Positions 7,648 to 10,193 of a stretch of 43,594 bases of DNA are shown here, one piece after another. The notes beneath the pieces are model-generated. The model searched no databases. It saw nothing but the letters and a program-made list of their open reading frames with translations, and was not told the DNA's origin. Made by a program: the position numbers and the translations under genes. Source of the stretch: a virus (lineage: Duplodnaviria > Heunggongvirae > Uroviricota > Caudoviricetes); IMG/VR virus record IMGVR_UViG_2526164599_000004; one strand, 5' to 3'. Each line of letters starts with the position of its first letter. Positions within the stretch are counted from its first letter, which is position 1.

Positions 7648-7944
7648 TTATACCTCTGAATCAATATCAACCTGATGGTGAGCAATGGTTTCAACCATGT
7701 ACCGGATGTGTTCTGCCATGCGCTCCTGAAACTCAACATCGTCATCAAACGCACGGGTAATGGCTTTTTTGCTGGCCCCGTGGCGTTGCAAATGATCGAT
7801 GCATAGCGATTCAAACAGGTGCTGGGGCAGGCCTTTTTCCATGTCGTCTGCCAGTTCTGCCTCTTTCTCTTCACGGGCGATCTGCTGGTAGTGACGCGCC
7901 CAGCTCTGAGCCTCAAGACGATCCTGAATGTAATAAGCGTTCAT
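7648..7944 (-). CDS. gam: Gam 3' portion: intact 98-codon ORF beginning at the internal Met ([13 protein letters not shown]...)
   Basis: Matches the lambda Gam C-terminal 98 aa; its ATG is part of the IS target duplication, so the native upstream sequence is replaced by the IS end. Confidence 0.8.
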
Positions 7945-8045
7945 TGTCAGCGCCAATGATATAAGACAGTAATTCACCATTTGGATTGTCCGCTCCACCC
8001 AACATGTTGTTTCCTTAAGGTTCCTACACCACAAAGGGAACACTC

Positions 8046-9218
8046 ATGCTGAGCAGAGAGGATTTTTACATGATAAAGCAAATGCGCCAGCAAGGTGCGT
8101 ATATTGTTGATATTGCCACTCAGGTTGGTTGCTCTGAGCGGACCGTCAGACGGTACCTGAAATACCCGGAACCTCCGGCCAGAAAAACACGCCACAAAAT
8201 GGCCAAACTCAAGCCGTTCATGGACTATATAGATATGCGTCTGGCTGAGAACGTCTGGAACGGCGAGGTCATCCTGGCGGAAATCAAAGCGATGGGTTAT
8301 ACCGGTGGCCGTTCCATGTTGCGCTACTACATCCAGCCCAAACGTAAGATGCGGCCATCGAAGAAAACGGTTCGCTTCGAAACTCAGCCCGGTTACCAGC
8401 TACAGCATGACTGGGGAGAAGTTGAGGCTGAGGTTGCCGGGCAACGATGCAGGGTTAACTTCGCGGTTAATACGCTGGGGTTCTCACGTCGCTTCCATGT
8501 CTTCGCGGCACCAAAGCAGGATGCTGAACATACCTATGAGTCACTGGTCCGCGCCTTTCGCTACTTCGGCGGTAGCGTGAAAACCGTGCTGGTCGATAAC
8601 CAGAAAGCCGCAGTTCTGAAAAATAACAATGGGAAGGTGGTGTTCAACTCCGGGTTCCTGCTGCTGGCCGATCACTATGGCTTCCTGCCACGGGCCTGCC
8701 GTCCACGAAGGGCCAGAACCAAAGGTAAGGTTGAACGGATGGTGAAATACCTCAAGGAAAACTTCTTCGTCCGGTACCGCCGGTTCGACAGCTTCGCCCA
8801 TGTTAACCAGCTACTGGAGCAGTGGATGGCTGACGTTGCTGACAGGCGAGAACTTCGCCAGTTCAGGCAGACACCGGAACAGCGCTTCACGCAGGAACAG
8901 GAGCATCTGCATCCGCTGCCGGGTACGGACTTCGATACCAGCTATTTCGATATCCGTCATGTCTCCTGGGATGGCTATATCGAGGTTGGCGGGAACCGTT
9001 ACAGCGTACCGGAAAGCCTGTGTGGCCAGCCGGTATCAATACGGATCTCGCTGGATGATGAACTACGGATCTACAGTAATGAGCAACAGGTAGCATCGCA
9101 CCGTCTCTGTTCGGCTGCATCCAGCTGGCAAACCGTGCCGGAGCATCACGCCCCACTCTGGCAGCAGGTCAGTCAGGTGGAACACAGACCGTTGAGTACG
9201 TATGAGGAGCTGTTGTGA
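8046..9218 (+). CDS. istA: IS21-family transposase IstA
   Basis: 390 aa with N-terminal HTH ([38 protein letters not shown]) and integrase core; recalled as IS21 IstA-like. Confidence 0.85.
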
Positions 9219-10012
9219 TGCATGAACTGGAGACACTGCTGAGTCGTCTTAAAATGGAACATCTGGGCTACCACGTTGAAAGCCTGCTGGAGCAGGCGGC
9301 CAAAAAAGAACTGAACTACCGCGAGTTCCTGTGCATGGCGTTGCAGCAGGAATGGAACGGGAGGCATCAGCGCGGTATGGAGTCCCGGCTGAAACAGGCC
9401 CGCTTCCCGTGGGTCAAAACGCTGGAGCAGTTCGACTTCGGCTTCCAGCCAGGTATCGATCGTAAGGTCGTCCGTGAGCTGGCCGGGCTGGCGTTCGTGG
9501 AGCGTAGCGAGAACGTGATCCTGCTGGGTCCGCCCGGTGTGGGTAAAACGCACCTGGCAGTCGCTCTCGGGGTAAAAGCGGCGGACGCTGGTCATCGGGT
9601 ACTGTTCATGCCACTGGATAAGCTGATCGCCACACTCATGAAGGCAAAACAGGAAAACCGGCTGGAAAAACAGCTACAGCAGCTTGGTTATGCCCGGGTA
9701 CTGATACTGGATGAGATAGGCTATCTGCCGATGACCCGCGAGGAAGCCAGTCTGTTCTTCCGGTTGCTGAACCGTCGATATGAAAAAGCGAGCATCGTGC
9801 TGACATCAAATAAAGGGTTCGCCGACTGGGGAGAGATGTTCGGCGATAACGTGCTGGCAACGGCAATCCTGGATCGACTGCTCCACCACTCAACCACACT
9901 GAACATCAAAGGAGAAAGCTACCGGTTAAAGGAAAAACGCAAAGCGGGAGTGCTGGCAAAAAACGCCACGCCAATCAGTGATGATGAAATGGCGGAAAGC
10001 GGACAACATTAA
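9215..10012 (+). CDS. istB: IS21-family ATP-binding helper IstB
   Basis: 265 aa with Walker A motif GPPGVGKTH; start overlaps the istA stop. Confidence 0.85.
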
Positions 10013-10069
10013 TGACCAATAGCGGACATTAAAAATGGCGAAAAACGGCCAATAATCTTGGCGTTGACA

Positions 10070-10193
10070 TCATGGCTGAACTCCTGAAATAGCTGTGAAA
10101 ATATCGCCCGCGAAATGCCAGGCTGATTAGGAAAACAGGAAAGGGGGTTAGTGAATGCTTTTGCTTGATCTCAGTTTCAGCATTAATATCCAT
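10070..10193 (-). pseudogene. gam: gam 5' fragment (first 41 codons, [24 protein letters not shown]...)
   Basis: Matches the lambda Gam N-terminus; separated from the rest of gam by the IS21-family element. Confidence 0.8.

Follow-up and report, generated by a model that had tools for sequence, protein, structure and literature searches.

What does an insertion sequence (IS) do to a gene when it enters exactly at an internal start codon, and is such a position reached by chance? The question is raised by a lambdoid prophage in a stretch of 43,594 nucleotides (IMG/VR record IMGVR_UViG_2526164599_000004; the whole stretch is called the window here), in which a copy of the IS21-family element ISEc62 splits gam, the gene for the RecBCD inhibitor Gam. 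The explanation that we favor, and hold as a whole to be very probable, is that ISEc62 disrupted gam and removed the Shine-Dalgarno sequence from the short form of Gam (GamS), leaving a Red-proficient, gam-deficient prophage, and that it did so at a local hot spot. The disruption is real but ordinary: a known IS has entered a known gene, and prophage genes are commonly disrupted by IS elements. Only the possible hot spot is more than routine, and the severed Shine-Dalgarno sequence is a corrected mechanistic point.

The limits of the element were fixed by reconstruction of the empty site, and the name ISEc62 is used as given by the NCBI Prokaryotic Genome Annotation Pipeline (PGAP) and ISfinder. 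The element and its parts are as follows.

7945-10069, plus strand: complete ISEc62 (IS21 family), 2125 bp, with TG...CA termini.
7941-7944, unstranded: left copy of the target-site duplication TCAT (ATGA on the gam strand), which gives the intact GamS open reading frame (ORF) its ATG.
10070-10073, unstranded: right copy of the target-site duplication TCAT, containing the ATG copy that retains the native Shine-Dalgarno sequence.
7945-7994, plus strand: left end, with the outer inverted repeat (TGTCAGCGCCAA) at 7945-7956 and an inner repeat at 7973-7994.
9987-10069, plus strand: right end, with direct repeats at 9987-10006 and 10033-10052, an inner repeat at 10021-10042 and the outer inverted repeat at 10058-10069.
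8046-9218, plus strand: istA, DDE transposase of 390 amino acids (NCBIfam transpos_IS21, 283.3 bits, cut-off 160).
9218-10012, plus strand: istB, AAA+ helper ATPase of 264 amino acids (NCBIfam IS21_help_AAA, 296.3 bits, cut-off 200).

The initial annotation had described a 2125-bp IS21-type element with istA, istB and a 4-bp TCAT duplication; all of its coordinates hold, and the NCBIfam and Pfam matches and the identity with ISEc62 bear it out. The window element is 100% identical in nucleotide sequence over all 2125 bp to at least 20 PGAP-annotated ISEc62 copies, which have unrelated flanks and are found on chromosomes as well as plasmids. This full-length match in unrelated surroundings indicates that the structure is not a chance resemblance. 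Identity to IS21 proper is ~86%. The Pfam domains HTH, rve and Mu-transpos_C_2 are found in IstA, and IstB matches IstB_IS21 (E=1e-87). The left tip at 7945 reads TGTCAGCGCCAA... and the right tip at 10069 reads ...TTGGCGTTGACA, with 11 of the 12 outermost bases pairing between the two ends. The inner inverted pair (7973-7994 and 10021-10042) forms nested terminal repeats, as is typical for the IS21 family, and the left-end repeats would be candidate L1/L2 IstA binding sites by analogy with IS21 (PMC10122671). Duplications of 4 bp also flank the other complete ISEc62/IS21 copies examined, the duplicated sequences being unrelated. Membership of the IS21 family follows from IstA and IstB with their overlap (istA stop and istB start in TGATG at 9216-9220), the TG..CA ends with inner repeats and the 4-bp duplication. 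The istA-istB operon with its TGATG overlap, the TG..CA ends, the terminal repeats, a terminal TTGACA in the right end and the 4-bp duplication are all common to ISEc62 and the IS21 prototype of plasmid R68.45. Compared to annotated ISEc62, the element in the window is itself no different; only the target is new. Its intact ORFs and the identical copies elsewhere imply recent activity of this variant, and the window copy is apparently active.

The target was then identified from the two parts of gam on either side of the element.

7648-7944, minus strand: intact GamS ORF of 98 codons and a stop, with the IS left end immediately before it and no Shine-Dalgarno sequence.
10074-10193, minus strand: stranded codons 1-40 of the long gam frame (GamL).

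Removal of ISEc62 and one TCAT restores a continuous 138-codon gam ORF whose product is identical to lambda Gam (NC_001416) at 134 of 138 positions. The comparison with the intact lambda gene places the junction inside gam and upholds the earlier description of a split gene. Four E. coli genomes have IS-free prophages that give a 100%, gapless match to an 800-bp reconstruction of the empty site; for a 1000-bp reconstruction, the identity to lambda-like and Shiga toxin (Stx) phages is 99.2-99.3%. At least 80% of the 800-bp reconstruction is contiguous in 1376 genomes, and E. coli genomes contain several thousand gam copies, most of them intact. On the gam strand, the duplicated ATGA consists of the Met41 ATG and the first base of Asn42. 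It had been proposed that the target was the Met codon of the short Gam form, and Met41 is indeed where GamS, comprising Gam residues 41-138, begins (Wilkinson et al. 2016, PMC5218532). The 98-codon ORF, also said to be intact, matches Pfam Gam (PF06064) from end to end (1-98/98, E=3.4e-65) and is identical to lambda GamS (residues 41-138) at 96 of 98 positions. The 40 codons described as stranded lie where they had been placed; their frame continues for 14 codons into ISEc62 and yields a 54-amino-acid ORF (10029-10193).

The intact ORF does not by itself imply that GamS is made, as seen from the translation signals around the two junctions.

10081-10085, minus strand: native GamS Shine-Dalgarno sequence AGGAG, 7 nucleotides upstream of the ATG copy at 10073-10071.
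10029-10073, minus strand: new 14-codon ORF with the native Shine-Dalgarno sequence and ATG at its head and its stop inside the IS right end.
7945-7980, minus strand: in-frame extension from the IS left end; the ATG at 7980 adds 12 codons.

The GamS start codon and its Shine-Dalgarno sequence are now on opposite sides of ISEc62. Because the ATG belongs to the duplication, the Shine-Dalgarno sequence remains with the upstream ATG copy, 2125 bp away from the GamS ORF, which no longer has the two signals together. The AGGAG, which also precedes Met41 in lambda, has a duplex energy of -6.9 kcal/mol with the 3' end of 16S ribosomal RNA (rRNA), close to the -7.1 kcal/mol of the bet Shine-Dalgarno sequence. 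The ATG at 7944 is preceded by ...TTGGCGCTGACA, with a pairing energy to the 16S rRNA 3' end of only -1.5 kcal/mol. Initiation at the ATG at 7980 would give a 110-amino-acid chimeric Gam (ORF 7648-7980); a GGAG located 12 nucleotides 5' of this ATG has an energy of -6.0 kcal/mol, at a spacing too long for an optimal Shine-Dalgarno sequence. In exact look-ups of junction-spanning ORFs, the 110-amino-acid chimera is the product recorded for the source assembly, on one contig, and nothing else was on record beyond it. Both GamL and GamS are active when expressed from plasmids (PMC5218532). Since GamL is active with 40 extra residues, the 12-residue extension is probably tolerated; the level of the chimera should, from its start signals, be low. 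With the GamS ATG cut off from its Shine-Dalgarno sequence, translation initiation, and not transcription alone, is the likely bottleneck for GamS.

GamS is now 2.1 kb farther from the leftward promoter pL and lies behind antisense IS sequence, with istAB opposed to pL transcription. The initial annotation had proposed that its expression may depend on read-through or on promoters in the IS end, leaving translation out. The read-through part stands as plausible; an IS-end promoter did not emerge above chance. Read-through from pL is plausible because the N gene and a boxA-like nutL motif are present, and by analogy with lambda it is probably enough for transcription.

12060-12332, minus strand: N antiterminator gene (Pfam N_peptide).

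The boxA-like GCTCTTTAA (~12467-12475), followed by hairpins, is located between N and a pL-like promoter region (~12520-12555). Terminator-like minus-strand hairpins lie between N and the IS at 10913-10892 and 10473-10454; as they precede the IS, the transcripts that reach it should be N-modified. N-modified RNA polymerase overrides the polarity of IS insertions, as known from lambda genetics. On the gam strand inside ISEc62, the only candidates for intrinsic terminators were weak 5-bp stems at 10062-10048 and 8203-8191, not above chance. Read-through from pL is also known for IS1 and IS2 in gal, which likewise lie in the path of pL downstream of nutL. In contrast to those cases, the element here is ISEc62, it is crossed antisense, and its read-through is deduced from lambda biology.

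The staggered cut thus fell on ATGA, at the Met41 codon, and placed ISEc62 between the GamS Shine-Dalgarno sequence and its start codon. From these observations we propose the following consequences. The long frame GamL would be destroyed. The native Shine-Dalgarno sequence and the ATG copy would now direct translation of a 14-codon peptide that ends in the IS, and GamS could be produced only by inefficient initiation at 7944 without a Shine-Dalgarno sequence, or from the ATG at 7980 with its poorly spaced GGAG. On induction, N-modified transcription from pL would read through the 2.1-kb IS, and bet, exo, xis and int would still be expressed. The prophage is likely gam-null or strongly hypomorphic and leaky, and otherwise Red-proficient, as far as can be predicted from its sequence. 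Loss of gam affects rolling-circle replication and burst size. The predicted loss or reduction of RecBCD inhibition is similar to that of lambda gam amber alleles and red-gam deletions (Spi-). Unlike in the classical lambda gam mutants, the coding sequence of the active form is intact here, and the predicted defect is one of translation initiation, possibly with polarity, which may be leaky.

The second half of the question, whether the position is accidental, was addressed by looking for other insertions. A search with the left junction led to three further complete E. coli genomes in which an IS21-family element is in or adjoining gam. In the finished genome of E. coli AST85 (NZ_AP043644, 608510-610634), ISEc62 is inserted at the identical nucleotide, in the same orientation and with the same TCAT duplication, and the 98-codon Gam ORF is intact and annotated by PGAP. 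The other two elements are IS21 proper. In AVS0225 it is inserted further upstream, outside gam, with the duplication ATGT (4572-6702 of the extracted locus), and in DS26-1 it is 78 bp deeper in GamS with the duplication CTTT (4223-6353 of the extracted locus). In all four insertions, the window included, istAB is antisense to pL, a number too small for significance. The exact junction, TAAGCGTTCAT followed by TGTYAGCGCCARTGATA, had no match in IMG/VR or JGI metagenome contigs, and no instances were found beyond the source assembly of the window and AST85.

Several differences make the AST85 insertion look independent of the one in the window. It is in a different prophage, located at fimZ/tRNA-Arg (the DLP12 site), with a truncated integrase and an unrelated gene replacing kil. 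Compared to the IS-free prophage of 2014C-3097 at the same fimZ/tRNA-Arg locus, its flanks have 0 mismatches over 3171 bp on the left and 1 over 2176 bp on the right. The flank haplotypes of the window and AST85 begin to differ 51 bp left and 20 bp right of the IS, and their ISEc62 copies have 6 differences over 1.3 kb, with each variant 100% identical to copies at unrelated sites. Judged by these alignments, the two insertions are apparently separate events.

Alternatively, both could go back to one ancestral event, with homologous recombination or gene conversion later carrying the allele from one lambdoid prophage to another and the IS homogenized through conversion with other ISEc62 copies, in which case there would be no hot spot. 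Lambdoid prophages are mosaic and often recombine, the bet-gam segments of the window and AST85 prophages are ~98% identical, several ISEc62 copies are present in both genomes or their relatives, and the junction sequence logos offer no basis for a site preference. However, recombination end points would be needed within the 51 bp to the left and the 20 bp to the right of the IS, and 20 bp at best just reaches the least homology with which RecA or Red recombines efficiently, while the AST85 flanks otherwise match their own IS-free lineage for >2 kb on each side. All six IS differences over 1.3 kb would also have to be converted, and the two prophages are at different chromosomal sites with unrelated kil regions. 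A single origin is therefore considered unlikely.

It should be mentioned that the gam allele of AST85, 2014C-3097 and DS26-1 has a 1-nucleotide insertion (cctgaaaatgg vs cctgaaatag), equivalent to window positions 10087-10095 and seen in the extracted loci L001 (6426-6510) and L003 (6430-6520) and in the IS-free locus L051. It breaks the 40-codon N-terminal extension, so no GamL is possible from that allele. The GamL frame of AST85 is already broken in this way, unlike that of the window, where the GamL ATG at 10193 has no Shine-Dalgarno sequence. The broken frame, the GamL ATG without a Shine-Dalgarno sequence and the 98-amino-acid calls by PGAP suggest that lambdoid phages can dispense with GamL and that the conserved functional product is GamS.

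If the window and AST85 insertions are separate, the same nucleotide has been used twice. The chance of a random second hit is roughly ~1e-5 to 1e-4, assuming a guessed few hundred independent insertions and a 5-Mb genome. A second hit at one nucleotide and in one orientation is thus extremely unlikely if insertion is random, which indicates a hot spot. IS21 has no strong target sequence specificity; the target is chosen and deformed by IstB according to its structure, and kink-prone sequences have been put forward as hot spots (PMC10122671, PMC11208146). The exact position is best explained by a local ISEc62 hot spot, rather than by the start codon as such. For the more specific proposal, the chances are in our estimate evenly balanced: the gam Shine-Dalgarno/ATG junction would be a structure-based ISEc62 hot spot, entered at least twice independently, with a recurrent and reversible-looking silencing of gam that spares the Gam ORF and the Red genes. 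The insertion site contains CATG inside the short inverted repeat GTTCA-N4-TGAAC, which is a lead only. Likeness of the target to the IS ends, as IstA binding sites, was considered and rejected, as the 120-bp empty site aligns to them no better than shuffles do (p = 0.5-0.98).

Several points weigh against the favored explanation. The hot-spot inference draws on two events only. In the logo of 43 unique ISEc62/IS21 left junctions, collected from IMG/VR and from a draft Escherichia genome in which ISEc62 has expanded strongly, no position exceeds 0.31 bit; no target-sequence motif emerged, and nothing singles out this site. As for the loss of Gam, leaderless-like or weak initiation at 7944 could still supply enough GamS, since RecBCD is an enzyme of low abundance on which Gam acts stoichiometrically. 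As for the Red genes, Rho-dependent termination in 2.1 kb of untranslated antisense RNA is not predictable here, and read-through by N is carried over from lambda biology.

A large ISEc62 expansion can be seen in Escherichia sp. MOD1-EC7003 (NZ_PTRE01), where the ISEc62 contig has a coverage of 2968 vs ~110 elsewhere (~27x). The IS left end interrupts this assembly at 22 contig ends with 21 distinct flanks, and gam is at none of these junctions.

Selection could also bring such insertions to light regardless of any target preference, if lysogens with an inactivated gam were fitter owing to less RecBCD inhibition from a leaky pL and gam::IS alleles were enriched. Three apparently separate IS21-family insertions in the ~420 bp of gam (window, AST85 and DS26-1), all in the same orientation, would be consistent with it. 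Selection for loss of function would, however, scatter insertions instead of putting two at the same nucleotide and orientation, and most E. coli gam copies are intact, as the 1376 genomes with a contiguous empty site attest. We regard selection as an improbable explanation.

Adaptive rewiring, in which the IS end supplies promoter or translation signals and GamS comes under new control, possibly in the lysogen and independent of pL, appears very improbable. Preservation of the GamS ORF is perfect, an ATG in the IS end is in frame with it, the same architecture is seen twice, and outward promoters are, as a general statement, common in IS elements (PMC10122671). However, the scan for promoter-like sites found 3 vs 2.4 expected from shuffles, with the sole minus-strand match ~280 bp inside istA, and no sigma-70-like site above chance reads out of the left end into GamS. 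The promoter parts described for IS21 (PMC10122671), a -10 facing inward in the left end and a -35 facing outward in the right end, have the wrong geometry for GamS, since the right-end element points away from it. The split promoter predicted for an IS21-type element has putative counterparts in ISEc62: the TTGACA that ends the element at 10064-10069 is a perfect -35 hexamer facing outward on the plus strand, antisense to kil, cIII and N, and TATAAG is read at 7960-7965 in the left end. In addition, the GamS ATG has lost its Shine-Dalgarno sequence, and inhibition of RecBCD by constitutive Gam should come at a cost to the host. A hybrid promoter starting from the right-end TTGACA was sought by hand and found no support, since -10 candidates 16-18 nucleotides past 10069 gave at most 3 of 6 matches. 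The TTGACA right end might form hybrid promoters at other ISEc62 insertion sites.

Misplacement of a repeated IS in the source, a draft NCBI assembly (GCA_000250375.2, contig AIHI01000004.1), is hardly credible even though ISEc62 is multicopy in many strains, given the perfect 4-bp duplication, the exact restoration of gam and the identical structure in the finished AST85 genome.

The favored explanation of a Red-proficient, gam-deficient prophage has its setting in an otherwise lambda-like early region, with the following genes next to the insertion.

6857-7642, minus strand: bet (RecT family), which follows GamS directly downstream and has kept its own Shine-Dalgarno sequence.
10148-10291, minus strand: kil, intact, upstream of the insertion.
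10260-10424, minus strand: cIII, intact, upstream of the insertion.

The gene exo, like bet, keeps its own Shine-Dalgarno sequence. The window begins in ybhC, followed by int and xis, which places the prophage at the lambda attachment site. The leftward genes N, ral, an ea10-like gene, cIII, kil, (IS), gam, bet and exo, on to xis and int, are in the lambda order, with sieB on the opposite strand between N and ral. The genes cI, cro, cII, O and P come next, and the ORFs in the right part resemble those of lambda in size and are ordered as expected for terminase, portal, head and tail genes, assignments made by size and order only.

The prophage carries three IS copies. Besides ISEc62, the nin and late-regulatory region contains two identical 1312-bp IS3-family copies (17783-19094 and 23078-24389, ends TGAACCGCCCCGGG...), directly oriented and separated by 5.3 kb, and their OrfB of 296 amino acids matches NCBIfam transpos_IS3. 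The pair brackets the nin-to-lysis region, with a Q-like antiterminator region and a 360-amino-acid ORF (21059-22141, minus strand) located where related prophages have the ompC-like porin gene. It resembles a composite transposon; the flanking duplications are not simply paired, which may mean a rearrangement between the copies. At 12770-14076 (minus strand), in the position of lambda rexA/rexB between cI and pL, there are genes for a 258-amino-acid DUF1828 protein and a 180-amino-acid protein without a family match, a pair that could be a moron or a defense cassette. E. coli CP53, the relative without an IS at the gam site that served for comparing the empty site, has its own IS5 splitting cro (14127-15107 of its extracted locus), a further example of a lambda prophage at the attachment site whose regulatory region is decaying through an IS.

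A literature search found no paper describing an IS-disrupted gam or this ISEc62 insertion; ISEc62 itself came up in two papers, neither of them about phage by title or abstract. The case illustrates GamS as the conserved functional unit, given a GamL start without a Shine-Dalgarno sequence and a common allele in which the GamL frame is broken. Annotation pipelines call the 98-codon Gam intact despite its lost ribosome-binding site, as PGAP does in AST85, so surveys of which Red genes are present or absent can overcount functional gam. The two apparently independent insertions at the same nucleotide offer a natural target for testing the "kinkable DNA" model, a proposal on how IS21-family elements choose their targets that came from the IstB/IstA cryo-electron microscopy structures. 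If the hot spot is true, this 70-bp segment would lend itself, as a natural substrate, to studies of how IstB/IstA choose bent or kinked target DNA.

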